A stretch of 64,000 nucleotides of DNA from a bacterium (GTDB lineage Bacteria > Patescibacteriota > Microgenomatia > UBA10105 > UBA927), in NCBI GenBank assembly GCA_021817785.1, contig JAKAFY010000004.1, positions 6,826 through 70,825 of the forward strand, in the 5' to 3' direction. The notes beneath the pieces are model-generated. The model was not told where the DNA came from. It made no database searches and worked only from the letters and a program-made list of their open reading frames with translations. Shown here in pieces: positions 12,925 through 25,764 of the stretch (within the stretch, counting starts at the first letter, position 1; each line of letters begins with the position of its first letter). The position numbers and the translations under genes are program-made.

Positions 12925-13386
12925 TCAACGTCTTCGAGGCCATCGAATCGCTGCTAAACACATATCAGGTGGTAACTTTGTTCCGCTGACTTGAAACGTC
13001 GCGTTTATTCCAGAAATTCGGTTCTTAGGAGTAGAATGAAGACGAGACGAAGTATTGCTATCGAGTATAGTTTGTAACCCAAGAAGTGCCAATGGTCGTA
13101 ACAATCCGAGATCATTTGCTTTATCTACAACGTCCATATGATGATAATCACGACGTCCATCATTTCTACTCTTTACGGCGCTTAATAAATTTCGCACCGT
13201 TCCTTCGCCGGAACACAACTTCTGTCCAATTTCTATTGACGAATAGCCTTGCGCATGTAGGCGAAGCGCTTCCAACTCTCTTAATGATGCAAGAAATCCT
13301 TTGTAATAAATCCAAATATCGTCATTCCGTGAGAATGCTACTGTCGCAACCCTCCCACCGCCCAACTCAATATCTCGCATAAACAT
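12925..13386 (-). CDS. LuxR/GerE-type HTH protein; C-terminal half unrecognisable
   Basis: LRELEALRLHAQGYSSIEIGQKLCSGEGTVRNLLSAVKSR is a LuxR-type HTH. It sits in a low-GC patch. The downstream half of the ORF has no recognisable domain and may be a degraded extension. Confidence 0.45.
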   Translation of the reverse strand: MFMRDIELGGGRVATVAFSRNDDIWIYYKGFLASLRELEALRLHAQGYSSIEIGQKLCSGEGTVRNLLSAVKSRNDGRRDYHHMDVVDKANDLGLLRPLALLGLQTILDSNTSSRLHSTPKNRISGINATFQVSGTKLPPDMCLAAIRWPRRR

Positions 13387-13891: not shown

Positions 13892-15241
13892 TTACACCTG
13901 TGCCGTATCATGCAGATGCGGCAATACGATATCCGAAATTCCCAGTTCAGTGCTCACGCGTTTGGCCAGTATGTTGCGCTGGCCGTCTTCCCCATGTGTC
14001 AGAAATACTTTCTTTACCCCCTGTATAGGCTGCAACCAATCCATCAGCTGCTGCTGGTCGGCGTGCGAGCTCATGGCCTGCGTATCATGCACCACGCCCG
14101 CCACTTTTACGGTTCTGCCGTCTATGTGTACGGTGCGTTTTCCTTCCAGCAGTTCGCGCCCCAGCGTTTCCTCCCCCTGGTATCCCACGATGAGCAATCT
14201 GGTGGACGCAATCGGCAGGTAGCGCATGGCGTGTTCCCGGATTCTTCCCCCGGTCATCATGCCGCTTCCGGCGATGATCACCTTTGCTCCGGGTTGTGTA
14301 TCCAGCGCGATGCTTTCCTTGCGTTTCCCGATGACGATCAGGCCGGGAAATCCGTACGGCCCCTCCCCGCCGGACTCGTAGCGCACATGCGTATTGCAGT
14401 CTTCGGGATACCGGCTATAGATATGGGTTGCGGTGTTCCCCATCGGGCTGTCGGCATACACGGGCGTTTCGCTGCGTACCTTTCCGTCTTTTTTCAAATG
14501 CATGATCATATGCAAAAGTTCCTGCGTCCGCTGCAGGGAAAATGCGGGGATGAGCAGTGTCCCGCCGCTCCCCTCCACCGCATTGATTTCATTTTGGACG
14601 GTCTCCTTGGGGTCAGTAGTAGGATGCAGCCGGTCTCCGTAGGTAGACTCCATCACCACGGCATCGGCGGATTCGATGGTTTCGGTTTCTAAAAGCAAAT
14701 CATCCGGCGAATTTCCCAGGTCGCCGCTAAATACGATGCGTTGTATGTCGGAATCCGCTTTCGTGTCTTTGATCTCGATCATGGCCGACCCCATGATATG
14801 CCCGGCATCGCGAAGCGTTACCATAAAGTCCCCTATTGGAAACGGCGTGCGATAATACACGCGCTGAAACCGCTGGATGGTCTGTAGCACCCTTTCTTCA
14901 TCATACAGCTCGGGCTTTTCGTCTTCTTTGGCTATCTTTGCGCTGTCTATAAGAGACAATTCCGTCAGATCCGCTGTCGCTGGCGTCATCCATATGGGTG
15001 CGGTATATCCGTTTTTTAAAAGTATCGGCAGTCTGCCGCAGTGGTCCAGATGTGCGTGCGTAAGTATTGCGCCGGACAGCGTGCTGCAGTCATACGCGTA
15101 CGGCTGGTAATTTAGCTGTTCTATCTCTGCCGGTCCCTGAAACATCCCGAGGTCTATAAGGATCGATTGTCCGGAGCCGGAAGTTACGACATAGCTCGAG
15201 CCGGTTACGGTGCCGGCAGCTCCCAAAAAGGTTATCTTCAC
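13892..15241 (-). CDS. MBL-fold beta-CASP RNA-metabolising hydrolase (CPSF73/YSH1-like)
   Basis: N-terminal MKITFLGAAGTVTGS. HxHxDH motif ILTHAHLDHCGRLP. Beta-CASP length of about 450 aa. Confidence 0.85.
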   Translation of the reverse strand: MKITFLGAAGTVTGSSYVVTSGSGQSILIDLGMFQGPAEIEQLNYQPYAYDCSTLSGAILTHAHLDHCGRLPILLKNGYTAPIWMTPATADLTELSLIDSAKIAKEDEKPELYDEERVLQTIQRFQRVYYRTPFPIGDFMVTLRDAGHIMGSAMIEIKDTKADSDIQRIVFSGDLGNSPDDLLLETETIESADAVVMESTYGDRLHPTTDPKETVQNEINAVEGSGGTLLIPAFSLQRTQELLHMIMHLKKDGKVRSETPVYADSPMGNTATHIYSRYPEDCNTHVRYESGGEGPYGFPGLIVIGKRKESIALDTQPGAKVIIAGSGMMTGGRIREHAMRYLPIASTRLLIVGYQGEETLGRELLEGKRTVHIDGRTVKVAGVVHDTQAMSSHADQQQLMDWLQPIQGVKKVFLTHGEDGQRNILAKRVSTELGISDIVLPHLHDTAQV

Positions 15242-15285
15242 CTTACCACTATACTATATTTCACTGTGCCAAACGTATATATATT

Positions 15286-15609
15286 TCAGGACCAACGTAA
15301 CGTTGAATTATATCGAAGCGTTTGGCGAGCTTCAGAAGTAGAACCTACGCCACCGCCGTCTGGCACTGTTATCATCACATTAACATCATTTGTCAGTAAA
15401 TGTGACAATACATCATGGCCAAATCCTCTACCACCAAAGGAGTACATAATTTCCGGCCCGTCAGGAAGTGACACTGTTATGCAACCGCCTCGCAAGACTG
15501 CGCCCGTTACCACCCATCCAAGCTCTCTTGCCCTACGATTATTTCGTAACAAACCGATGGCTTTCACCACATCCGAGCCATATTTGCTTTCGATAATTTT
15601 TTGTAACAT
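15286..15609 (-). pseudogene. Remnant of a YvcK/CofD-family (gluconeogenesis factor) gene; only the N-terminal about 50 aa is recognisable
   Basis: FGGRGFGHDVLSHLL...VMITVPDGGGVGSTSEAR aligns to the YvcK N-terminus (GGGTG...IVTVADDGGSSGRLR) but with an insertion and an early stop. Sits in an AT-rich gap. Confidence 0.35.
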
Positions 15610-15716
15610 ATCTTACACGGAAAAATATATTCTATAGCAGAAAATAACTATAAGTCAATATTTGAGGCTATCTATTTACGAATCCATATAATTCAAGGTT
15701 ATATTATACTGATTCT

Positions 15717-16304
15717 ATGCGCGCAACATATGCTATCCGCCTCCTCGTTCTTGGTGCCGTCATCGCCATCCTTGTTTTCCAAACCATGCAAAAGCCGGCG
15801 CTCCTGCAGCATCCGGCACTTCCCTCGGAGCACACCGGTATAGCCACAGGCAGCGCGGTATTGGGAGTCGTCACCAAATCCGCTGACTGCGTCACCGACG
15901 GCACATTGCCGGACAGCAGTTGTACTCCGGGAGCGATCGACCCCAATGTCACCCAGGACAATATCGGTAGCACCATCTGCGTATCGGGATATACGAAAAG
16001 TGTCCGGCCGGATGTTTCCGTCACCAACACCATCAAAACGAACGTGATGATAGCCTACCGCGACACAGGGACCAAAGCAGACTACGAGCTCGACCACCTT
16101 ATCTCCCTCGAACTCGGCGGGTGTCCGGATTGTGTGGCCAATCTCTGGCCCGAGCCGTATGGCATAGCCTTGGGCGCCCGCGAAAAAGACAAAGTGGAAA
16201 ACTACCTGCGCAAACAGGTGTGCAGCGGCGCCATCAGCTTATCCCAGGCCCAGTCCCAGATCGCCCGCGACTGGGTAAGCGTCTACAGACAACTACCGCA
16301 ATAA
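15717..16304 (+). CDS. Secreted or membrane-anchored HNH-like endonuclease
   Basis: N-terminal TM/signal. Cys-rich. YELDHLISLELGGCPDCVANLWPEP is an HNH-type motif (DH...GG...NLWP). Confidence 0.55.
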   Translation: MRATYAIRLLVLGAVIAILVFQTMQKPALLQHPALPSEHTGIATGSAVLGVVTKSADCVTDGTLPDSSCTPGAIDPNVTQDNIGSTICVSGYTKSVRPDVSVTNTIKTNVMIAYRDTGTKADYELDHLISLELGGCPDCVANLWPEPYGIALGAREKDKVENYLRKQVCSGAISLSQAQSQIARDWVSVYRQLPQ

Positions 16305-17270
16305 TTGAGTTATAAGATTCACAACATGATCTTTCTTTTCAGCCTTACTCTCAGCGACAAGCAACGCCAATGCAGTTAACCCTGCCGGATTGATGCGTCC
16401 GCCTCCCCGCACGCCCGTCTTCCGTAAAAACCAAACGAATGCAAAAGCGCCGGACCTTTTGTTTCCGTCGATAAATGGATGATTTTTTATGATGAAATAC
16501 AGAAGATGCGCGGCTTTTTCTTCAATAGATGCATATAGGTCAGCTCCATTAAATGACTGCATCACATTACCCACTATTCCCTCTATACTCTTCGTTTGTT
16601 TCTCTTTGGCAAATAACTCAGATGCTCCATTTCTTTTTATGAGTTCACGGCGTAAATGAGAGATAGCACGGGTTAATTCGCTCCCCGTCAACTGCACTGC
16701 CTTTTTTGTAAAACCAAGAGGATGTACGGTTCCCTTATCGTATGCTTCAAGCGATACCCACGTCGTAGCAAATTCTTTTATAAGATCCAAAATATTTTTT
16801 GGATCCAACTGGGCGTGTTCAGGCAATAGAGCCTGAATATCTGTTACGGACTTCATAAACGACGTGTAATTTTTGGCGATTCTCTTACGATTTATTGTGT
16901 AGCCGCGCGTTATATGAAGATGCAGTATTTTTGTCGCCCATATCCGAAACTGAGTCGCTCGTTTTGAGCTCACTCGATACCCAATAGACAAAATCATATC
17001 CAAGTTATAGTGCAGGACTTCACGGGAAATACTTCGTATGCCTTCTTGTTGAACTATCCGGATTTTCCGGATAGTTGAAGAATCTCTTAATTCCTCAGAT
17101 GAATAAATATGTTGTATGTGCTCATTCACCGTACGGACATCTACTTCAAACGCGGCCGCGATTTGCGACTGAGTCGCCCAAATAGTTTCATGTGCATAAT
17201 CTCCACGCAACTCTATAGCACCACTTGAGGCTTGGAAGATTACCGACGTAGTTTTTTGTTGCGTTGACAT
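16293..17270 (-). CDS. RhuM-family virulence protein fused to a Doc/Fic (death-on-curing) domain
   Basis: N-terminal RhuM-like region. C-terminal Doc motif HPFIDGNKRSGAFAFVWFLRK (HxFx(D/N)GNKR). Confidence 0.8.
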   Translation of the reverse strand: MSTQQKTTSVIFQASSGAIELRGDYAHETIWATQSQIAAAFEVDVRTVNEHIQHIYSSEELRDSSTIRKIRIVQQEGIRSISREVLHYNLDMILSIGYRVSSKRATQFRIWATKILHLHITRGYTINRKRIAKNYTSFMKSVTDIQALLPEHAQLDPKNILDLIKEFATTWVSLEAYDKGTVHPLGFTKKAVQLTGSELTRAISHLRRELIKRNGASELFAKEKQTKSIEGIVGNVMQSFNGADLYASIEEKAAHLLYFIIKNHPFIDGNKRSGAFAFVWFLRKTGVRGGGRINPAGLTALALLVAESKAEKKDHVVNLITQLLR

Positions 17271-17275
17271 ATACA

Positions 17276-17941
17276 TCACTTCCCGCACGTCTCCGCCTTC
17301 GTATATCCTGCCTTTCTCGCCTCGCGTTCGTCACAAAAATAGTCCTCTCCCCGATTTTTTTCGATCACGGTAAATTTGTACTGCGCGCAGGTGGGCAAAA
17401 AATACGTCTTTACCCCGTTGTCGTCTATGTTTCCCTTTATCGTGCATGTCGAGTTGTCCTTGTTTTCCGTCGACCAGCACGCACCGTATATCCCGCGGTT
17501 AGCCGCACGAGCTTCCGCAGCCGCCGCCTTTAGCGCGTCTTCTTTGGTGGATGTGTCATGGTGGTACGTCGCCCATCCGCTTTTGAGCATCGCTTCGTTT
17601 ACGAGTACGCGCCCGGTATACAGGAGTGCCATCCCCCGTCCCATCTGGTCCGGTATATGTTCGGCTATCACCACCTGTTTTCCCTGGACCAGTGTTTCCA
17701 ATTCTTTTTTGGCTTCTTTCCCGCCGCACGACCCCAATTCAGGGGCATCGATCTGCCGCAATCTCACCCGGTCTTTATTGCCGACTACGATCGTATCCCC
17801 GTCTATGACGCCGATCACCGGCACGCCAATCTCGGGCCGATCGTATTGCCGGGCCAGAAGAACTATATTGAGAAGTATAGACGGGACGAGCAGAACAAGC
17901 CAGACAATTGTTCGCGGGACTATTGATTTTTTATCTATCAT
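17276..17941 (-). CDS. Thermonuclease (SNase-like), membrane-anchored, with Cys-rich C-terminal extension
   Basis: N-terminal TM. VIDGDTIVVGNKDRVRLRQIDAPE is the staphylococcal-nuclease signature. The C-terminal tail has six Cys. Confidence 0.85.
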   Translation of the reverse strand: MIDKKSIVPRTIVWLVLLVPSILLNIVLLARQYDRPEIGVPVIGVIDGDTIVVGNKDRVRLRQIDAPELGSCGGKEAKKELETLVQGKQVVIAEHIPDQMGRGMALLYTGRVLVNEAMLKSGWATYHHDTSTKEDALKAAAAEARAANRGIYGACWSTENKDNSTCTIKGNIDDNGVKTYFLPTCAQYKFTVIEKNRGEDYFCDEREARKAGYTKAETCGK

Positions 17942-17990
17942 ACGTGCCTGAAAATATCATCTTGGCGCGATACATCAACCCGTATTTAGC

Positions 17991-18019
17991 TTGACAAATC
18001 AACCTAAATTACCTATACT
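17991..18019 (+). promoter_or_regulatory. Consensus sigma70-type promoter, TTGACA-N17-TATACT, with no downstream ORF
   Basis: ttgacaaatcaacctaaattacctatact matches the -35 and -10 consensus with 17-nt spacing. Confidence 0.4.
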
Positions 18020-18043
18020 TCTATACAGAATTACCACGAAAAG

Positions 18044-18083
18044 CGCCCCATAAGGCTCGTCCTTACGGGGTTCTTTTCTTTTT
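18044..18083 (+). terminator. Intrinsic terminator: 10-bp stem with one mismatch, then UUCUUUUCUUUUU
   Basis: gccccataagg-ctcgt-ccttacgggg followed by ttcttttcttttt, about 25 nt downstream of the promoter above. On the minus strand it may also terminate the NYN gene. Confidence 0.5.
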
Positions 18084-18140
18084 ATACGCCACTTTCTTTT
18101 TAAGGTCGCTAAGAAACGCAATGCACCCTGATGGAAACCG

Positions 18141-18563
18141 CTATAACAACGCAGAATATTTGCGCTGATCCGGGATAAGCAGCTTCTGTAATTTATTCCG
18201 TTGTAAAAGATAATTTACTAAACAGTGGAAATCACCGTCACCGGTCACGATGACTGCCTGGTGATATTCAGATATATCCACCATCGCCTGCAACACAAGC
18301 TCTGCATCACAATTTCCTTTCACCGTCCCGTCTTTGTATCGCAATGTTGGTTTAAAGATGAGGACATAGCCTTTTTCCTGTAGCGAGCGGTATAGATCAG
18401 CATTTGATTCAAAATATCCTATAAATAGGTACGCTTTCGTGACATGATATTTGTCGGATAAATACACACGGAACCGATGGTAATCTAGTTGCCAGCCCAT
18501 CTCTTTAAAAGACATTACCAGATTCTGGCTATCGATAAACGCATAATTATTTTGTTTCGCCAT
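18141..18563 (-). CDS. NYN-domain (LabA-like) protein
   Basis: MAKQNNYAFIDSQNL...VIVTGDGDF are NYN/PIN-like motifs. Start taken at the internal Met with a GAGGGT RBS. Confidence 0.75.
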   Translation of the reverse strand: MAKQNNYAFIDSQNLVMSFKEMGWQLDYHRFRVYLSDKYHVTKAYLFIGYFESNADLYRSLQEKGYVLIFKPTLRYKDGTVKGNCDAELVLQAMVDISEYHQAVIVTGDGDFHCLVNYLLQRNKLQKLLIPDQRKYSALL

Positions 18564-18625
18564 ACCCTCACTATATGCGAAATATCGGAAATCTCCTGTA
18601 TGGAAGTTCACAATATGCCATGCCG

Positions 18626-18646
18626 CCCACACACCGGGTGTGTGGG
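18626..18646. repeat. GC-rich palindrome CCCACACACCGGGTGTGTGGG followed by TATTTTTT (copy 1)
   Basis: 10-bp arms. Second copy at 20200-20218. Confidence 0.7.
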
Positions 18647-18696
18647 TATTTTTTGCGTTCTTTCGCTACTCTGTGTACTATGGGGTGTATATCCCT

Positions 18697-19227
18697 ATGA
18701 TGCTCCGCGGACTCCATACACTCTTTGTCCTGGCATTTCCCAACCTATACATGCAACTTCTGTATATCCTCACGCTGTCTGCAATTCTTACCTGGCTGTT
18801 CCTCAATCAGAAGCTCAATGCGTTTATCAACGCGGTGTTTTCCATTGTGGGAACCGCCCTCGCCGTCATCATCGGATCGTGTATATCCTTAGTCAGCCGT
18901 ACGCTGAACGTTCTCTTTGGCCCTACGCCGATATTCCCTCCCCTTCGTATTCCCATCTTCGTCAAAGCGCTCATCTGTTTTTTGCTCGGTATCGCCGTGT
19001 TGTATATCGATCACGTCTACGGCGCTCGCTGGTTTTCCGCCGATGAAACCATCCCGTTTTACAAAATGGATGTGGCAGATCATGTATTTTGGGTATCGGC
19101 CTATGCACTCTCTATCGGAGGGTTTTGTATCGGACTGGGGAGCTTCTATCTTGTCACACCTCCGGTACGTGCGATCAATGCGCTACTCAGCCGCCCGTTC
19201 CAGATATCTATTAGATTTTATGTATAA
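18697..19227 (+). CDS. Polytopic membrane protein (hypothetical)
   Basis: Start at ATG (MMLRGLH) with GGGGTG upstream. Five or six hydrophobic helices. The ORF-track start at 18640 is GTG and lies inside the palindrome. Confidence 0.5.
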   Translation: MMLRGLHTLFVLAFPNLYMQLLYILTLSAILTWLFLNQKLNAFINAVFSIVGTALAVIIGSCISLVSRTLNVLFGPTPIFPPLRIPIFVKALICFLLGIAVLYIDHVYGARWFSADETIPFYKMDVADHVFWVSAYALSIGGFCIGLGSFYLVTPPVRAINALLSRPFQISIRFYV

Positions 19228-19275
19228 ATTATTTTTTGTATATATACATAGCATGGTGCTACCATAATAGACAGT

Positions 19276-19593
19276 ATGCCTAAAATAATAGACATTGATC
19301 ATCTTCTGCAGGTATTTCATAAATTCGGAACAAGGGATGTTGTGCTTCCAGACCCCGACGTCCACCTAACCAATGGCCAAATCAAATCGCTCATCACTCA
19401 TGAGCTGGCAACCCCCAGGGCAAAAGGAAGTGGATTTATTTTTCAGAGTGGTCCGATGCAGGAACTAGAAATGAGGGTACAAGGAGCTAAAGATGAACAG
19501 ACATCGCTTTTAGATGATCCGCTCGCAGACATGAAGCGCGGCATCTGGCCAAGAGGAACAAAAAAGGTTCCAAAACATCCGAGATGTAAGTAG
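19276..19593 (+). CDS. Hypothetical protein (low-GC region)
   Basis: 105-aa ORF with no strong RBS and no known domain. Confidence 0.25.
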   Translation: MPKIIDIDHLLQVFHKFGTRDVVLPDPDVHLTNGQIKSLITHELATPRAKGSGFIFQSGPMQELEMRVQGAKDEQTSLLDDPLADMKRGIWPRGTKKVPKHPRCK

Positions 19594-19754
19594 GGGGCCC
19601 AAAAATAATGCGATTCACCATCGAAAGACGTATTGCCTATTTAGCGATGGCCCGGAATCGGAATATATCCAAAGACATCGCGAATATCTTCGTCAGGAAA
19701 TTGCACATCATCATGGCACACTACGGGAATTTCCGGACGGAATTGAAGAATAAA

Positions 19755-20195
19755 TTACAGTATCCGGTGCAGATTCGCCTCACTCGGCGGCGACGCTTTC
19801 AGTAGGGCGATTACCTCGGCAGCCAGTGCATCGGCAAACGTATCCAGATCCCGGTAATCTTTTGCCACAATCCGCGTCACTCCCCGCTTCCTGGCTTCTT
19901 CGTTATATTTGGGCACCGAAGATATGGCAATCACTTTTTGTGGCCCCAACCGCTCGATATCCAGTACGTGAAACGAGCCTCCCAGTTTACAATCGCGGTC
20001 CAGCAGTATCATGTCAAAAACAGCCGAGGGATTATTATTGATGTATGCTTCCACCTGCAGATAGTTGGTGAGGATCACCATGGAAAACTCATACGGTTGG
20101 TCTTCTTCCACCACTGCCAACTTCTCAAGAATTTTTGACAGCGTCCTTAAATCGTCTTCTAGGATAAGGATGGTTTTGTGGAGGATCATAGCCAC
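19755..20195 (-). CDS. Stand-alone receiver (REC/CheY-like) domain protein
   Basis: ILILEDD acidic pocket. ILLDRD putative phospho-acceptor. About 146 aa with no output domain. Confidence 0.55.
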   Translation of the reverse strand: MAMILHKTILILEDDLRTLSKILEKLAVVEEDQPYEFSMVILTNYLQVEAYINNNPSAVFDMILLDRDCKLGGSFHVLDIERLGPQKVIAISSVPKYNEEARKRGVTRIVAKDYRDLDTFADALAAEVIALLKASPPSEANLHRIL

Positions 20196-20199
20196 CTAC

Positions 20200-20218
20200 C
20201 CACACACCGGGTGTGCGT
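20200..20218. repeat. GC-rich palindrome CCCACACACCGGGTGTGCG (copy 2, imperfect)
   Basis: Shares the 17-nt core CCCACACACCGGGTGTG with copy 1. Sits in the 32-nt gap between the DUF2075 stop and the REC start. Confidence 0.7.
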
Positions 20219-20227
20219 AATGTTTAA

Positions 20228-22114
20228 TTAGACTTTGCCCATATCAATTCTACTTCTCACAAACTTCTCCGTTTCCTTGTCAACGAAATACACATAGCAG
20301 CCGCGGAGGGAGCGGCTGAGGAGTACACGGTAGGTGTTTTTCACCAGATCGAGGAATTTGTCTTTACTGCGACGGACCGTGGAGTCGCAGGAGTTTTCCG
20401 GGTGACCTTCCCACGCTCCGGTTTCAAAATTATAGATCATATCGGCACCGACAATCACGCCGACGTAATTAAATTCAAATCCCTGAATGGTGTAAATGCT
20501 GCCGATTTGATTTATGGCGCGTGGGTCGTATGGCCAAAGTGATGCCGGTGGCACATCAGGCGCTAACCGTCGGCCGTTGATCTCTTTCCCTTCCCACGTC
20601 ATTGCGAACTCGCCGATATGCACGTCTTTCACCAGTGTTCCGTCCGAATTCGGCTCGCTCCATGGCCAACAAAAACCGGCAACCATGCGTGCGGAATTAG
20701 GTTCGTCATCATTTTTCGCTTTAATCTTTTCATATAGCTCCTGCGGGGATTTTACGATCTGAAAATCAAATTCCTCACGCTTCGGATGCCATATTGCTTG
20801 CTCCGTGTCATGTATGCCAAACGTATTATTTACCCATTGGACAAATTTATCCGATCCCTGGCAACGGAATTGAATCGCCAAATTATATTCATGTACGTCG
20901 CACCCCAGACGCTGCGCATTCTCACGTATATAGTTTGTCGAACCGATCTCGCCAGGTCGTACATTTTGTCGATCGTCGATAAAAAATACCGGCACCTTTG
21001 CCACACCGATTAATTCTTCGATCTGCGGCACTTCCGAACGGTACTCTTTTTTCGTAAACCGGTTATTGCTGTTTACACGAATCCGGTGCGATTCATCGGC
21101 GATAAGTACATCAATAGAGTTCGGTTCGGCGCGCACATAACTATTGAAGTATTTCACCTGGGACCTCGCAACGGATCCTAATGATTTCCGAAGTGACTCG
21201 GTAAACGCTTTCGAGCCTGTGGCATATTGTGCATTTTTACCTTGCCGCGATAATTCTGCCAAGAGATTAATTGCTATCACTGACTTACCGGTGCCCGGGC
21301 CGCCATTGACGATGACCACAGATTTTCTTTTGCTTGTCCCCCCGTACTTTACGAGGTTCATCACCCGATCAAACGCAGATAATTGATCATCCAACAGGAT
21401 GTACCGTTTATTTTCTTTTACCACCTTCACGACTTCATCAAGCAAGCGTTTACTGGGCCCATACTTACTCTCTAATACGCGCTCCATGACAGGAACGCCG
21501 TTTCCGTTTATGAGTTTCTGTTTCAAAAAATCACTGAGTTTTGTTACATCCCGCTCACAAAATACCGGGTACTCTTTTACATAATCTGCGTATTGCTCCG
21601 CAAACAACGCATCATGCTCGACCGGAACGTAATTGTGCACATAGGCGCACGCATGCAAACGTACCGGATCCGATTCAAAAAAAGCGGAGTGATTATCTTC
21701 TAAATATAATTTATATTGCCCCACCTGCACCGAAGGATGCAGTACATCCCGGTTCGCACCCCCCACCCATGTCACCACACGCTCGCTCACCTCACTGACT
21801 TCTGCTTTTTCCCATTGTTTAAGCTCTATGATGACAGAATGATCTTTCCCGTTTTCATCTCGACCGCAGATCATGCAGTCAATACGTCTAGAATTAAGGG
21901 GAAGCTGGTATTCCAAAATAACTCCATGATCGTGGAATTCGGAAACTTCAAAAACATCTTTTATCGCCCGGAGCGATGTTCGCCATGACCGGACTTCTGC
22001 GTCAGAAGGGTGGTAGCCAAAATAGTCAATAAACGCCGTCTCCAGCTTTGTTGCTATCGTATTCTGCAACGTGTCTAAGACGAACTCACTTATTGAGCCG
22101 GCGTATAATCTCAT
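20228..22114 (-). CDS. DUF2075-family (Schlafen-like) ATPase/helicase with N-terminal nuclease-like domain
   Basis: Walker A VIVNGGPGTGKSV. Walker B VLIADESHRI. Overall DUF2075 architecture with an N-terminal domain (HSVIIELKQW). ATG 2 nt after the mazG-like stop. Confidence 0.8.
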   Translation of the reverse strand: MRLYAGSISEFVLDTLQNTIATKLETAFIDYFGYHPSDAEVRSWRTSLRAIKDVFEVSEFHDHGVILEYQLPLNSRRIDCMICGRDENGKDHSVIIELKQWEKAEVSEVSERVVTWVGGANRDVLHPSVQVGQYKLYLEDNHSAFFESDPVRLHACAYVHNYVPVEHDALFAEQYADYVKEYPVFCERDVTKLSDFLKQKLINGNGVPVMERVLESKYGPSKRLLDEVVKVVKENKRYILLDDQLSAFDRVMNLVKYGGTSKRKSVVIVNGGPGTGKSVIAINLLAELSRQGKNAQYATGSKAFTESLRKSLGSVARSQVKYFNSYVRAEPNSIDVLIADESHRIRVNSNNRFTKKEYRSEVPQIEELIGVAKVPVFFIDDRQNVRPGEIGSTNYIRENAQRLGCDVHEYNLAIQFRCQGSDKFVQWVNNTFGIHDTEQAIWHPKREEFDFQIVKSPQELYEKIKAKNDDEPNSARMVAGFCWPWSEPNSDGTLVKDVHIGEFAMTWEGKEINGRRLAPDVPPASLWPYDPRAINQIGSIYTIQGFEFNYVGVIVGADMIYNFETGAWEGHPENSCDSTVRRSKDKFLDLVKNTYRVLLSRSLRGCYVYFVDKETEKFVRSRIDMGKV

Positions 22115-22116
22115 GG

Positions 22117-22506
22117 TTATAATTCCGTATACTTTTTATGATTTCCTTTTGCTTTATTCACTGGGTATTTTTTACTACTTACTGCCATTTTATTTTTAAA
22201 CGCCTGTACAATATCTATATCTAAATCGTGACTCATGAGTAATACCCAGTACAATACATCAGAAAGTTCCTCGCCTAATTCTATTTTATGTGTTTTAAGA
22301 TACACCTGTATTTCTTTTTCGTTTTTCCATTGAAAATGCTCCATTACCTCTGTGGCTTCTAATACGAGGGATAGCGAGGTATCTTTGGGATTATGAAATT
22401 TTTTCCAATCCCGTGCATTGCGGAATTTAATGATGAGATTCGTTAATTCTTGTATGTCTGACATAAAGTACCGGTTTATAGTACTGCTTTTGGCGCTTAT
22501 TCGCAA
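22117..22506 (-). CDS. MazG-like nucleotide pyrophosphohydrolase (NTP-PPase)
   Basis: HNPKDTSLSLVLEATEVMEHFQWK...ELGEELSDVLYWVLL is the MazG/YpjD-type EExxE/D pattern. Tightly coupled to both neighbours. Confidence 0.75.
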   Translation of the reverse strand: MRISAKSSTINRYFMSDIQELTNLIIKFRNARDWKKFHNPKDTSLSLVLEATEVMEHFQWKNEKEIQVYLKTHKIELGEELSDVLYWVLLMSHDLDIDIVQAFKNKMAVSSKKYPVNKAKGNHKKYTEL

Positions 22507-22511
22507 TCTGT

Positions 22512-23198
22512 TTATAACAAATTTTTCTGTTTCAAACTTATATATCCTTCCGAAGAAATAATAATGTGGTCAATGACATGCACACCCGTCAATTCCCCGA
22601 CGGAAACCAATCTCTGAGTGAGATTCAAATCTTCATCTGAGGGTGTTAAGTCCCCAGATGGATGATTATGTGCTAATACAATACGAGCAGCTAATTGTTT
22701 TATCGCAGGTTCAAACACCTCTCTAGGATGCACGAGCGAAGAATTGAGAATTCCGACAGAAATATCACGTATGTCAATCAAATTATTTTGTGCATCGAGA
22801 AGCAATATTACAAAGTGCTCTTTTTTCTCACGACCCAACCGTTTCTGTAAATAGTCAGCTACCTTATTGGGGGATGTTAACGATATCTTCGTTGGCAGCG
22901 TTTCTTTGGCATACCGCTCAGCGATTGCCTGAAATAGTTTTATGCCAAACGCATTTGACGGGCCGATACCCTGTATCATTTGTACGTCTTCGTCAGATGC
23001 GTCCAGCACCCCGCGCAATCCGTTAAAGTGTTTTATCGCTTCTTTCGCAATCGCCTTACAGTCTTTGCGTGGAGTTCCCAATGTGAGGAGGAGTTCTACG
23101 ATTTCATAATCCAAAAATCCATCAAGTCCCGACCGGAGAAACCGCTCTCGCAATCGCTTCCGGTGTCCGGCGTGCGGGTATGTACCTCTTTGCTTCAC
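22512..23198 (-). CDS. radC: RadC-family JAB-domain protein
   Basis: N-terminal HhH region. JAMM motif HNHPSGDLTPSDED. Confidence 0.9.
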   Translation of the reverse strand: MKQRGTYPHAGHRKRLRERFLRSGLDGFLDYEIVELLLTLGTPRKDCKAIAKEAIKHFNGLRGVLDASDEDVQMIQGIGPSNAFGIKLFQAIAERYAKETLPTKISLTSPNKVADYLQKRLGREKKEHFVILLLDAQNNLIDIRDISVGILNSSLVHPREVFEPAIKQLAARIVLAHNHPSGDLTPSDEDLNLTQRLVSVGELTGVHVIDHIIISSEGYISLKQKNLL

Positions 23199-23289
23199 AT
23201 AAATAATGGTACACCAGAACCCTTCGTTATCGCCATTTGATCTATATGTAATGGTTCTATGAACAATTTGACATCAAACGGAGCGTATT

Positions 23290-23535
23290 CTATTTCGGAC
23301 CATTTTTTTGTGCCGCAACTCGCCAACTAAATATACCTTTTCCCCCACCCCTCCTCGACCTCGCATATCCTCTGTTGAGATGTTTCCCTTGAGGGCCATC
23401 GTGTAATTCTCGAAGTAAATCAAGCTCCCGATCACTTAGCGTAGATGGATCGATTTGCAGCTTATGCGCCAAATCATTTCTAGCTGCTATCGCCCAGATT
23501 GCTGCTAATTTTTCTTCTGAAATGTTATCAAACAT
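23290..23535 (-). CDS. Hypothetical protein
   Basis: 81-aa ORF with no motif. Confidence 0.25.
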   Translation of the reverse strand: MFDNISEEKLAAIWAIAARNDLAHKLQIDPSTLSDRELDLLRELHDGPQGKHLNRGYARSRRGGGKGIFSWRVAAQKNGPK

Positions 23536-23595
23536 ACAGACACCTATGATCTTACTATACGCTCATCATTCAAATACATGATTCGCCAAAACATC

Positions 23596-23889
23596 TTAAC
23601 CACAAGTTTTCTCAGGATGCTCGAAATGAAAATATGTAAGATGATCGAGAATTTCCTGAGCGGTCCAATCCCATACGGAGTTTGTACGTATCATCTCGCG
23701 GTACTCATCTCTATGATTCCTCGCGACACCAAGATAATACGCAAATTTTGGGTGTTCCGGCCCGTCTTTCAATGCATCCAGCATGTTCGAAAAAAAGAAC
23801 GATTCGATCCCAAAATCCGACATTTCCCGATACTCACGTATTTCCGCTCTCATGATATATATTATAGGATATTTTATGCCTTCCATCAA
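23596..23889 (-). CDS. Hypothetical protein
   Basis: 97-aa ORF with acidic and aromatic residues and no motif. Confidence 0.3.
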   Translation of the reverse strand: MMEGIKYPIIYIMRAEIREYREMSDFGIESFFFSNMLDALKDGPEHPKFAYYLGVARNHRDEYREMIRTNSVWDWTAQEILDHLTYFHFEHPEKTCG

Positions 23890-23940
23890 TCCCGCATCCT
23901 ATGGTGCAGGCTCCGCACGCGTATATCGTATACATACATC

Positions 23941-24026
23941 CATACACCTCCGAGGTGTAAAGTTGCCTAAACTTTTTCATTCAAAATTAGCCTCATTTTT
24001 TCCTTACACCTCCGAGGTGTTAGAAA
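23941..24026. repeat. REP doublet (left): two ACACCTCCGAGGTGT hairpins separated by a conserved linker of about 45 nt
   Basis: catACACCTCCGAGGTGTaaag...ttagcctcattttttccttACACCTCCGAGGTGTtaga. Confidence 0.85.
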
Positions 24027-24027
24027 T

Positions 24028-24741
24028 CTACGATAGTTCGTCAGAAAACGCATCTATCGCGACATGAGAAATCGTATGAAGTTCGCGTGCATACAACTCC
24101 TGATCACGCACAAACTCCGCATATTTTTCCTGCGAGCCTGCCAACGAACATATCAGTGCCGTATCCACCATACTAATTGATCGTCCCATATAGCATGAAT
24201 ACGACGTGTAAAGTGATGTGGCGAGAGTCGACAGTGTTTCTATCCCGGAAACAACCGGATTCAGGTGAATATACCGTGACACGTGCAGCAACTGCTCATC
24301 GGATTCTATTCGCACTGCCTGAAAGTTCCCCTGAAACACCGGGCCGACGCGTTTTCGTTTCGTATTAAAATACCGCGCATAGCTATTCATTGCCCGAAAT
24401 AAAAATGTGTGTATCCCCTCGTCCTGCTCCTGTCGTACGAGGAGATGAAAATGATTCGGCATCAATGCATATGCGTATAGAGATACGTGTTTTCCCGACT
24501 CATTCTGTGCCTCCCTGATAATGCGTTGTTTATCTAAAGGGGCGATGGAGTAAAGAGAAAGCTTAGTAGGACAATTGGTGAATCGGTAAAAATCTAATCC
24601 GAGTAAAAAATGTCTATAATCCGATACATTCCGGAACACGGAGCTTCTATCCACACCGCGGTTATAGATGTGATAGTACTCACCCGTCACCAATGGAACG
24701 TGCCGCATCGGCATACATGTACCATACCCGATTGGCAACAA
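24028..24741 (-). CDS. REP-associated tyrosine transposase (RAYT; IS200/IS605-family Y1 HuH transposase)
   Basis: HuH motif YALMPNHFHLLV. Catalytic Tyr region SRYIHLNPV. N-terminal YHIYNRG. Flanked by REP hairpins. Confidence 0.85.
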   Translation of the reverse strand: MLPIGYGTCMPMRHVPLVTGEYYHIYNRGVDRSSVFRNVSDYRHFLLGLDFYRFTNCPTKLSLYSIAPLDKQRIIREAQNESGKHVSLYAYALMPNHFHLLVRQEQDEGIHTFLFRAMNSYARYFNTKRKRVGPVFQGNFQAVRIESDEQLLHVSRYIHLNPVVSGIETLSTLATSLYTSYSCYMGRSISMVDTALICSLAGSQEKYAEFVRDQELYARELHTISHVAIDAFSDELS

Positions 24742-24776
24742 TACTTCAGTTATATTTCATACACCTCCGAGGTGTT

Positions 24777-24860
24777 AAATTTTCATCACAAACTCTTCAA
24801 ATTTAGCCTCATTTTTTCCATACACCTCCGAGGTGTTAGAAAATTCTTTATTCGCGGGCA
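24777..24860. repeat. REP doublet (right): two ACACCTCCGAGGTGT hairpins with a conserved linker
   Basis: catACACCTCCGAGGTGTtaaattttcatcacaaactcttcaaatttagcctcattttttccatACACCTCCGAGGTGTtagaaaa. Confidence 0.85.
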
Positions 24861-24894
24861 GGGGCGTACGATTTGTACTATACTACCCGGAAGA

Positions 24895-25764
24895 ATGAAA
24901 TTATTTTCCAAGATGAGCAAAGGCCTCCTGTTTGGTCTGGCCACGGCCATATTATGGGCGTGTTCATTAGTAAACACGCGATTTCTTCTGTTGCACGGCG
25001 AACAACCGCTCAACCTGACAATCTGGATCGGATTGGGTATGGCGGCCCCCTGGCTTTTTCTGTTTTACAGACATCACCGGGAATACCGCGCGCTTCCCAA
25101 AAAATATAAATGGTATTTGTTGGGCATCGGCATAGCGTCTTCCGTAGGACTCAATTTACTGCAGTCGGTGACGCTTGCCCATACGCCTGCCGTCAATTTT
25201 TCGTTCCTCTACCGCACCATTGTGGTGTTTACCATCATCCTTGCGTATATCTTTTTCAAAGAAGCCATCACGGTGAAAAAATGGATACTCGCCGGACTTA
25301 TCCTGTTCGGTTCATATTTGTTCACGACCAGCGGGAAAGGCATTACCCTTTCTACCGGAGATGTTTATACACTGGTGTATGCGCTCTCCGCCGCGTTTAT
25401 CGCTAATATTCTTATCAAACACACGGTTGCCAAAATGCATCCGGATTTAAGCGGCGCTGCCATTTCTATCGTGGCCACCACGTCCCTTTGTGTCTATGGC
25501 ATAGCAAGCGGCACCCTGCACGTCTCCGGACACATGCCGTTTATTCTCCTGGGGGCGGCATTTTCGTTTCTTATGACGATGGCCAGAAACCGCGCATATA
25601 AAGTCGCCTCCGCTTCATTTGTCACCATGATCGTGTCGCTTACTCCCGTTTTTGTCGGCATTCTCTCCTATCCGCTCCTCCACGAACGCCTCACTCCGGT
25701 CGAGCTTCTCGGCGGCACGATTATCGTGGGATCCATGTTCTTCGTCGAAAAATTTCACATCTGA
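24895..25764 (+). CDS. EamA/DMT-family transporter (10 TM)
   Basis: Two EamA-like halves. Start taken at MKLFSKMSKGLL. The upstream part of the ORF-track ORF is antisense to the RAYT and REPs. Confidence 0.75.
   Translation: MKLFSKMSKGLLFGLATAILWACSLVNTRFLLLHGEQPLNLTIWIGLGMAAPWLFLFYRHHREYRALPKKYKWYLLGIGIASSVGLNLLQSVTLAHTPAVNFSFLYRTIVVFTIILAYIFFKEAITVKKWILAGLILFGSYLFTTSGKGITLSTGDVYTLVYALSAAFIANILIKHTVAKMHPDLSGAAISIVATTSLCVYGIASGTLHVSGHMPFILLGAAFSFLMTMARNRAYKVASASFVTMIVSLTPVFVGILSYPLLHERLTPVELLGGTIIVGSMFFVEKFHI

Follow-up and report, generated by a model that had tools for sequence, protein, structure and literature searches.

A patch of four nuclease- and toxin-type genes in a Gottesmanbacteria-like genome is probably a mosaic within a variable region

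Anantharaman et al. 2013 (PMC3710099) reported fusion proteins of a RhuM and a DOC domain and noted their association with restriction-modification (R-M) loci. The Doc motif HxFx(D/N)(A/G)NKR contains a Lys that replaces the second Gly and marks Doc kinases versus AMPylating Fic enzymes (PMC5651007). For 15 of 28 metagenome-assembled genomes (MAGs) of Patescibacteria, a study predicted secreted nucleases of the SNc type and suggested nucleobase salvage as their role (PMC11495043). In this work, we analyzed a 64-kb stretch of DNA (the window; contig JAKAFY010000004.1 of assembly GCA_021817785.1) that carries a patch of four genes, g1 to g4, encoding an HNH-like protein, a RhuM-Doc fusion, an SNase with a so-called sunset domain, and a NYN protein. 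The host is a tiny-celled, groundwater-type bacterium of the Patescibacteria. Our analyses suggest that the patch is probably a mosaic within a variable region of about 9.7 kb in a Gottesmanbacteria-like Microgenomates genome, composed of the resident genes g1 and g3, the mobile gene g2, and a truncated g4. Judged by flanking core genes, the nearest relatives are Microgenomates MAGs labelled Gottesmanbacteria, Woesebacteria and Roizmanbacteria, with 60–71% identity in the beta-CASP protein. Contig DAIENL010000004.1 (MAG GCA_027341155.1) is near-identical, with one mismatch to the window in 20.6 kb, and the same g1–g4 arrangement was found on five contigs, all from one population.

All four open reading frames (ORFs) that an earlier note on this DNA had listed are present, and so are the motifs that it had quoted from g1 (YELDHLISLELGGCPDCVANLWPEP), g2 (HPFIDGNKR) and g3 (six Cys). 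Only g1 lies on the plus strand (15717–16304, 195 aa); g2, g3 and g4 and all their features given below are on the minus strand. g1 converges with g2 (16293–17276, 327 aa; an alternative GTG start at 17288 yields a 331-aa call), with a 12-nt overlap at the g2 3′ end. The g3 gene (17276–17941, 221 aa) shares 1 nt with g2, its stop and the g2 start forming a TGATG. g4 (18141–18563, 140 aa; 163 aa from a GTG at 18632 in some annotations) is separated from g3 by a 199-bp spacer that holds an intrinsic-terminator-like hairpin with a 10-bp stem and a T tail (18046–18070, minus strand). Given this strand layout, the g3/g2 overlap, and the strong terminator between g4 and g3, the patch comprises three transcription units: g1 alone, the coupled pair g3–g2, and g4 separately. 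Sigma-70-like promoter sites were no more numerous than in shuffled sequence.

The g3 protein was described in the earlier note as a membrane-anchored SNase with a Cys-rich tail, and profile searches and fold bear out the SNase and its tail, with hydropathy predicting the anchor. A predicted transmembrane helix (residues 10–34; 17840–17914; seen in hydropathy and in the AlphaFold2 (AF2) model) is followed by the SNase domain (residues ~40–151; 17489–17824; Pfam SNase, E 3.3e-14, 53.7 bits versus a cutoff of 21). The tail corresponds to the NCBIfam sunset domain NF051437 (residues 168–216; 17294–17440; 29.5 bits versus a cutoff of 27), on which we found no literature. The AF2 model, with a pLDDT of 92.8, superimposes on SNase in a Foldseek search of the PDB (E 3e-10, TM-score 0.82, rmsd 1.7 Å). 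In an alignment with PDB thermonuclease, g3 residues D49, R60, D65, E68 and R102 align to SNase D21, R35, D40, E43 and R87. Across 38 homologs, each of these Ca2+-binding and catalytic residues is either invariant or conserved to at least 90%; the position of T41 is Ala in g3. The six Cys are invariant in the same 38 homologs, which would fit disulfides in an extracytoplasmic protein. With Staphylococcus aureus thermonuclease (Nuc) and Bacillus YncB-type SNases, g3 shares the OB-fold, the catalytic equivalents, and a predicted N-terminal export or anchor segment. It differs from them by the additional C-terminal, Cys-rich sunset domain of about 60 residues, by a sixth invariant Cys located in the SNase core, and in that it is probably membrane-anchored and not released. 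Full-length homologs are common; they have 50–71% identity and carry the label ‘thermonuclease family protein [Candidatus Gottesmanbacteria]’.

For g1, described before as a membrane or secreted HNH-like protein, the hydrophobic N-terminus and, via relatives and fold, the HNH assignment were supported, but a direct profile match is lacking: g1 itself matched nothing in Pfam or NCBIfam (even at E ≤ 10 in both), in PHROGs or among PDB sequences. Its AF2 model (pLDDT 89.3) shows a transmembrane helix (residues 3–24), a disordered stalk (~35–46) and a globular domain (58–195), in which strands 123–127 and 143–147 and helix 154–169 make up a beta-beta-alpha unit. The catalytic core at residues 123–146, YELDHLISLELGGCPDCVANLWPE (16083–16154, plus strand), contains the family-invariant E124, H127 and N142, and the helix after it contributes D158 and E161, which are likewise invariant; these columns were taken from alignments of 37 members and of 143 family representatives. 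Model and alignment, with the metal site not inspected in 3D, show a beta-beta-alpha core with conserved His, Asn and helix acidic residues. The family is large, with 4437 hits in one search and 9163 clusters at 50% identity in another. The family profile of g1 recovers a tandem member, P0121, at 2.2e-91, and P0121 also matches g1 itself at 5e-40; its residues 304–325, equivalent to g1 123–146, pass the Pfam HNH model PF01844 with 32.5 bits versus a cutoff of 21.4. Moreover, the g1 model finds phage proteins labelled ‘HNHc domain containing protein’ among BFVD structures (E 1e-8, TM-score 0.61–0.67). The HNH-like call stands on two results, the score of P0121 above the Pfam HNH cutoff at the equivalent motif and the match of the model to the phage HNHc proteins. 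Foldseek returned nothing significant from the PDB; there, Cas8f-HNH ranks first both for the family profile, aligned on the core motif, and for the fold, and neither match is significant. The only catalytic Pfam matches among the 143 representatives were HNH, HNH_5, HNH_4 and Endonuclea_NS_2, the latter in 5 of the 143 and in 9 of the 37 relatives.

g1 hence shares the beta-beta-alpha core, the (E)xDH...GG...N motif and the helix acidic residues with HNH/His-Me nucleases (PF01844, HNH_5, Endonuclea_NS_2, SMART HNHc). In contrast to these, g1 and most of its family stay below all Pfam HNH thresholds, the classical second His or Cys-metal site is replaced by NLWPEP...KD..EN, and a conserved N-terminal subdomain (CTPG...TICVSGYT..VRP) and the N-terminal membrane anchor are added. 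We infer that g1 belongs to a branch of divergent HNH/His-Me-finger nucleases that is without annotation, its activity being predicted. Accessory modules in its relatives are of extracellular types (LTD, Excalibur, DUF3761, MG2, SH3 and, in some, Big_1). Their genomic surroundings are unalike and comprise R-M genes, housekeeping genes, or a PLD nuclease with a type-IV-secretion-like cluster. The last setting was seen on a Levyibacteria chromosome (L010, 6963–16569; L numbers denote homologous contigs and metagenome loci used for comparison), where the g1 homolog adjoins a PLDc_2 nuclease and a cluster of TrbC, TraC, VirB4-like and M23 peptidase genes that looks like a conjugation or DNA-uptake apparatus.

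Both g1 and g3 appear to be residents of the lineage, because their codon composition is core-like and because they recur near each other in Gottesmanbacteria-like contigs. The GC content at third codon positions (GC3) is 0.69 for g1 and 0.61 for g3, with a core mean of 0.56 (sd 0.075, n=44); g2 has a GC3 of 0.40 (z −2.2). Core proteins of the window are 60–77% identical to those of relatives, and the 50–71% identity of g3 is consistent with that. In the closest related contig, L127 (77% identity in AhpC, 81% in the Zn-ribbon protein), SNase, g1, an orf144-like gene, AhpC, Zn-ribbon and DUF2130 lie within 5.3 kb, with g1 and SNase 1.5 kb apart and other small genes in between. In L006/L007, SNase and g1 are separated by about 0.4 kb and stand beside a MazG-like gene and a DUF2075 helicase gene. 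In none of the relatives examined do g1 and g3 have the order and orientation that they have in the window.

g1 and g3 each have a single strongly hydrophobic N-terminal segment, which g2 and g4 lack, as judged by hydropathy and, for g1 and g3, by the AF2 helices. g1 and g3 are thus predicted to be exported and held at the cell surface, each as an ectodomain on one N-terminal transmembrane helix. There, the divergent HNH domain of g1 and the Ca2+-type SNase of g3 with its disulfide-rich sunset tail would cut extracellular DNA or RNA, and the products could enter nucleotide salvage in a cell of small biosynthetic capacity. DNA salvage is the most likely role, and it agrees with the secreted SNc-type nucleases predicted in Patescibacteria (PMC11495043). 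We regard it as unlikely that the two proteins act in offence or interaction of an episymbiont, attacking nucleic acids of a host or competitor or the DNA of a biofilm. Such a role would be in line with the predicted surface tethering of both, with the location of the g1 relative in L010 beside a PLD-type nuclease and a cluster resembling type IV secretion, and with g1-family members that carry adhesin-like MG2, Big_1, SH3 or LTD modules. However, neither a secretion system nor an immunity gene or polymorphic-toxin architecture accompanies g1 and g3 here, neither protein has a delivery domain, and other g1 relatives are found among housekeeping genes. Attack and salvage would also employ the same biochemistry, so that sequence alone cannot separate them.

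The g2 gene was correctly recognized in the earlier note as a RhuM N-domain joined to a Doc toxin domain. The RhuM N-terminal domain spans about residues 1–150 (16827–17276; Pfam RhuM 3.3e-23 on residues 71–140) and the Doc-type Fic domain about residues 205–316 (16329–16664; Pfam Fic PF02661 1.3e-13, 52 bits versus a cutoff of 24). PHROG 577, ‘Doc-like toxin’, is matched at 2.1e-17 over profile positions 10–115 of 128, and the only PDB sequence match is 9vzc, ‘Death-on-curing family protein’. TIGR01550, the P1 Doc subfamily, is a near miss with 36.1 bits versus a cutoff of 38.65. The PADLOC candidate system PDC-S23 (PDLC04965) covers nearly the full protein at 1.7e-105, residues 12–330 of the 331-aa call aligning with profile positions 4–323 of 327. 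In the active-site motif HPFIDGNKR (residues 266–274; 16455–16481), H266, F268, D270, G271, N272, K273 and R274 are invariant in an alignment of seven homologs with 38–62% identity to g2, which therefore carries the Doc variant with Lys in place of the second Gly. We also considered TKSIEG, upstream of the Fic motif, as an inhibitory helix of the (S/T)xxxE(G/N) type, and rejected it, because its equivalent in P1 Doc is presumably the normal N-terminal helix of Doc.

The protein has no hydrophobic segment and is predicted to be cytoplasmic. As the earlier note had stated, a Phd-like antitoxin gene is not adjacent: no ORF near g2 fits, since the g3 stop overlaps the g2 start upstream and g1 converges downstream, and no small neighbor gene is conserved as an antitoxin candidate across six loci with g2 homologs. 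With P1 Doc of the Phd-Doc system (TIGR01550, PHROG 577; 9vzc being a Doc family protein), g2 thus shares the Fic/Doc fold and the Doc-specific Lys, a motif that goes with EF-Tu kinase activity in Doc itself. Unlike P1 Doc, it lacks a Phd-like gene and instead has an N-terminal RhuM region of about 200 residues fused to it. Much closer are the RhuM/Fic/DOC proteins (PDC-S23; Anantharaman et al. 2013), which share with g2 over the full length the RhuM N-domain, the linker and the Doc-type Fic domain with the invariant HxFxDGNKR, and also the single-gene format, the missing neighboring antitoxin, and the defense or mobile settings. They differ in that g2 is from a Patescibacteria genome, with 37–43% identity to the plasmid proteins, and in its translational coupling to an unrelated gene for a predicted exported nuclease.

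Full-length relatives of g2 are found on plasmids of Legionella, Vibrio, Pseudomonas and Aeromonas, where they are labelled ‘virulence protein RhuM/Fic/DOC family protein’ and align over 96–99% of the query; in one case (L129), transposases flank the gene. Others are on IMG/VR viral contigs. Among 80 metagenome loci with g2 relatives, none has g1, g3 or g4 nearby. Because it stands alone in these 80 loci, on plasmids and on viral contigs, g2 is by its sequence relatives a patchily distributed mobile gene, and it is a known kind of mobile module that qualifies as a candidate single-gene defense system. We suggest that g2 landed between g1 and g3, and would now be translationally coupled to g3. 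Its Doc-type Fic domain might phosphorylate EF-Tu, upon which translation would stop, and the RhuM N-domain, in lieu of a Phd antitoxin, might silence g2 until a trigger arrives, for example infection. g2 would in this way constitute an abortive-infection-like module.

The g4 protein is NYN/PIN-like, as had been proposed, with Pfam NYN above threshold (1e-12, 49.2 bits versus a cutoff of 24.2), a match to PDB 2qip at 1.9e-10, and four invariant catalytic-type Asp, D11, D86, D109 and D111 in 140-aa numbering. It shares the NYN fold signature and the conserved Asp set with LabA-like NYN proteins (PF01936; 2qip, VPA0982), but it is shortened by an in-frame TAG and located away from the ychF neighborhood of its closest homologs. 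Homologs are 165–175 aa long, with a basic C-terminal tail, and 66–84% identical across many Patescibacteria phyla; g4 falls short of that length and tail. The TAG (18141–18143) ends g4 where nine of nine aligned full-length homologs have Lys. Past it, the tail remnant (RFPSGCIAFLSDLKKKVAYKKKRTP) and the ancestral stop remain in frame (18063–18140, minus strand); the 25 codons after the TAG match the family consensus KRFPSGxLxFxSDLKxKLxYKKK, with the ancestral stop falling within the hairpin of the terminator. The two closest homologs are located directly upstream of ychF (L130 5001–6721; L132 5001–6680), one contig running on into rpsF-ssb-rpsR, and the 74% nucleotide identity to both continues through the tail remnant and ends some 65 nt beyond the gene. 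A TAG followed by a tail still in frame suggests that the nonsense mutation is recent, with read-through being less likely. Since the nonsense codon removes the basic C-terminal tail, g4 is probably decaying or impaired; it would represent a separately transcribed copy of the highly conserved LabA/NYN family of Patescibacteria with its basic tail cut off. We observed the same TAG-bearing sequence in an independent Logan assembly (L002). Across different Patescibacteria, conservation of the small NYN gene together with its 3′ hairpin is unusually strong. Low GC was dismissed as proof of a foreign NYN gene, because the family is equally AT-rich in a genome with a GC content of 0.52.

The four-gene patch forms the left third of the variable region (15242–24900, ~9.7 kb, mostly low GC), which is bounded by the beta-CASP gene (13892–15241) and an EamA gene (24913–25764). 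In five of six related genomes or contigs, RhuM-Doc and NYN are replaced by R-M systems, an HTH+Doc pair (HTH, helix-turn-helix) or other genes; both are absent from the locus in L127, L006, L014, L015 and L017. L128, a seventh related contig, has kept SNase alone of the four. The Gottesmanbacteria relatives L014, L015 and L017 retain the order beta-CASP, HflX, Zn-ribbon, and their cargo directly upstream of beta-CASP is HTH+Doc, SNF2/methylase and type II R-M, respectively. The 64-kb window contains no tRNA gene, and direct repeats that could flank an island were not found beyond chance. The HTH+Doc pair of L014 (7544–8235; HTH_17 and a Doc with HPFKNGNKR) has a counterpart in L128 (1–466), about 7.5 kb from the SNase homolog and beside a type I R-M-like system. 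With Doc proteins of 141–143 aa, both pairs have the canonical two-gene format, and across relatives Doc is held in two formats at the same locus.

The synteny comparison argues against conserved core synteny for the set of four, since five of six relatives carry other cargo. That the cluster nevertheless consists of conserved housekeeping nucleases and RNases at their core location is quite improbable. g1 and g3 are indeed close together and near AhpC in L127 and L006/L007, g3 is common in Gottesmanbacteria, and the NYN family is conserved at 66–84% across phyla and stands beside ychF-rpsF-ssb-rpsR elsewhere. However, the absence of RhuM-Doc and NYN at the five loci with other cargo, the varying order and orientation of g1 and g3, and the low GC, Y1 transposase and defense-type genes of the region argue otherwise. 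Seven related loci indicate presence/absence polymorphism of the four-gene order. What is core-like holds for g1 and g3 only, and their residence is already part of the mosaic that we propose.

The earlier proposal of an accessory island of nucleic-acid effectors is right about the variable, low-GC region, but the four genes are not one functional unit (0 of 80 loci, three transcription units), and the target predicted for g2 by analogy would be a protein, EF-Tu, and not a nucleic acid. A single co-functional cassette, be it an effector operon or a multi-gene defense system with SNase or NYN as partner or antitoxin of RhuM-Doc, is very improbable: tight packing, a TGATG overlap that suggests g3–g2 co-translation, nuclease or toxin folds in all four proteins, and surroundings rich in defense genes speak for it, but the split into three transcription units over both strands, where a strong terminator parts g4 from g3, the predicted extracellular location of g3 (transmembrane helix, six invariant Cys) as opposed to g2 with no hydrophobic segment, the lack of g1, g3 and g4 near any of the 80 g2 relatives, the mutually unrelated contexts of g1 and g4 relatives, and a composition that divides the genes two versus two all speak against it.

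Several observations weigh against the proposed mosaic or its functional interpretation. In L048 (AhpC 66%), RhuM-Doc is found at 61% identity about 1.8 kb from AhpC, among other neighbors again, so that an old gene that was lost repeatedly is no less plausible than a recent acquisition. Low GC does not settle the matter, because RhuM-Doc is AT-rich in most hosts. The five contigs with identical arrangement come from the same population and do not gauge variability within the species. The 1-nt g3/g2 overlap could mean functional coupling, not accident. Activities of all four proteins are predictions; none of the Pfam HNH models recognizes g1 itself, which is tied to HNH by transitive homology or by structure. 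Hydropathy and AF2 helices are the sole basis for the predicted export and surface tethering of g1 and g3. PDC-S23 is only a candidate defense system, and in the literature we found no experimental report on it.

Besides the patch, the variable region holds orf107, three small genes, the gene of an SLFN-g3/DUF2075 helicase, a MazG-like gene, RadC and a Y1 transposase. orf107 (15286–15609, 107 aa) is the sole gene-like ORF upstream of g1, where the earlier note had seen a degraded YvcK fragment. This assignment was dropped, as the ORF has no similarity in Pfam, NCBIfam, PHROG or PDB, YvcK included; the AT-rich gaps noted there are real, with a GC content of 0.30 at 15242–15285 and 0.25 at 15610–15716. 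The orphan ORF has a low GC3 (0.38), its homologs were found only within the same population, and 24-nt imperfect inverted repeats (15298–15321 and 15678–15701) flank it within 15286–15701. On the far side of the patch, the 17-nt palindrome CCCACACACCGGGTGTG occurs in two identical, terminator-like copies (18626–18648 and 20197–20215). Between them lie 1.6 kb with the three small genes, which encode a multi-pass membrane protein, orf105 and orf144; the N-terminus of orf144 is receiver-like by eye, with no profile match.

The MazG-like gene adjoins the Nhi/AbiO-like SLFN-g3/DUF2075 helicase gene (20228–23198, minus strand). This pair recurs in unrelated contigs (L006 3753–6001; L114 3197–6148), with 62–69% identity in the MazG-like and 28–36% in the helicase protein, and in L114/L115 it is accompanied by RadC and a RhuM-N gene. 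The MazG-like protein has no PADLOC match, and together with the DUF2075 helicase it may form an undescribed two-gene defense module. The Y1 transposase (24028–24741), of the IS200/IS605 or RAYT type, is flanked by the palindrome ACACCTCCGAGGTGT, with two of its four copies to the left and two to the right (23941–24842); the palindrome is found nowhere else in the 64 kb. Outside the variable region, between HflX and AhpC, a 153-aa ORF (12925–13386, minus strand) with a weak LuxR/GerE-type HTH match below the Pfam cutoff has the lowest GC3 of the window (0.33) and is missing from relatives in which HflX directly adjoins beta-CASP; a further small insertion is the probable explanation.

In general, the locus is fairly ordinary, a variable region of a typical sort with genes of known kinds; of minor interest are the HNH-like family that lacks annotation, the sunset tail, and the interruption of the NYN gene. 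For island-calling in Patescibacteria it advises caution, since a cluster that looks thematic can be a chance juxtaposition in a hotspot. Current understanding is unchanged by these findings. A bolder view, to which we give only tentative credence, starts from the g1 family, which numbers at least 9,000 clusters at 50% identity and is modelled in neither Pfam nor NCBIfam: its members would be HNH-type nucleases tethered to the surface of Patescibacteria and of other bacteria with a single membrane, and together with SNase-sunset proteins they could be a main route by which auxotrophic cells harvest DNA from environment or host. Equally tentative is the separate idea that RhuM-Doc might work on its own as an abortive-infection switch: RhuM would sense phage DNA and free the EF-Tu kinase. 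In any case, RhuM-Doc (PDC-S23) is now placed as a single-gene defense candidate in a lineage with little-studied defense systems. Two further leads emerge, the huge, profile-less family of anchored HNH-like proteins and the SNase-plus-sunset architecture that typifies Gottesmanbacteria, each a candidate component of nucleotide salvage in cells that are unable to make nucleotides.

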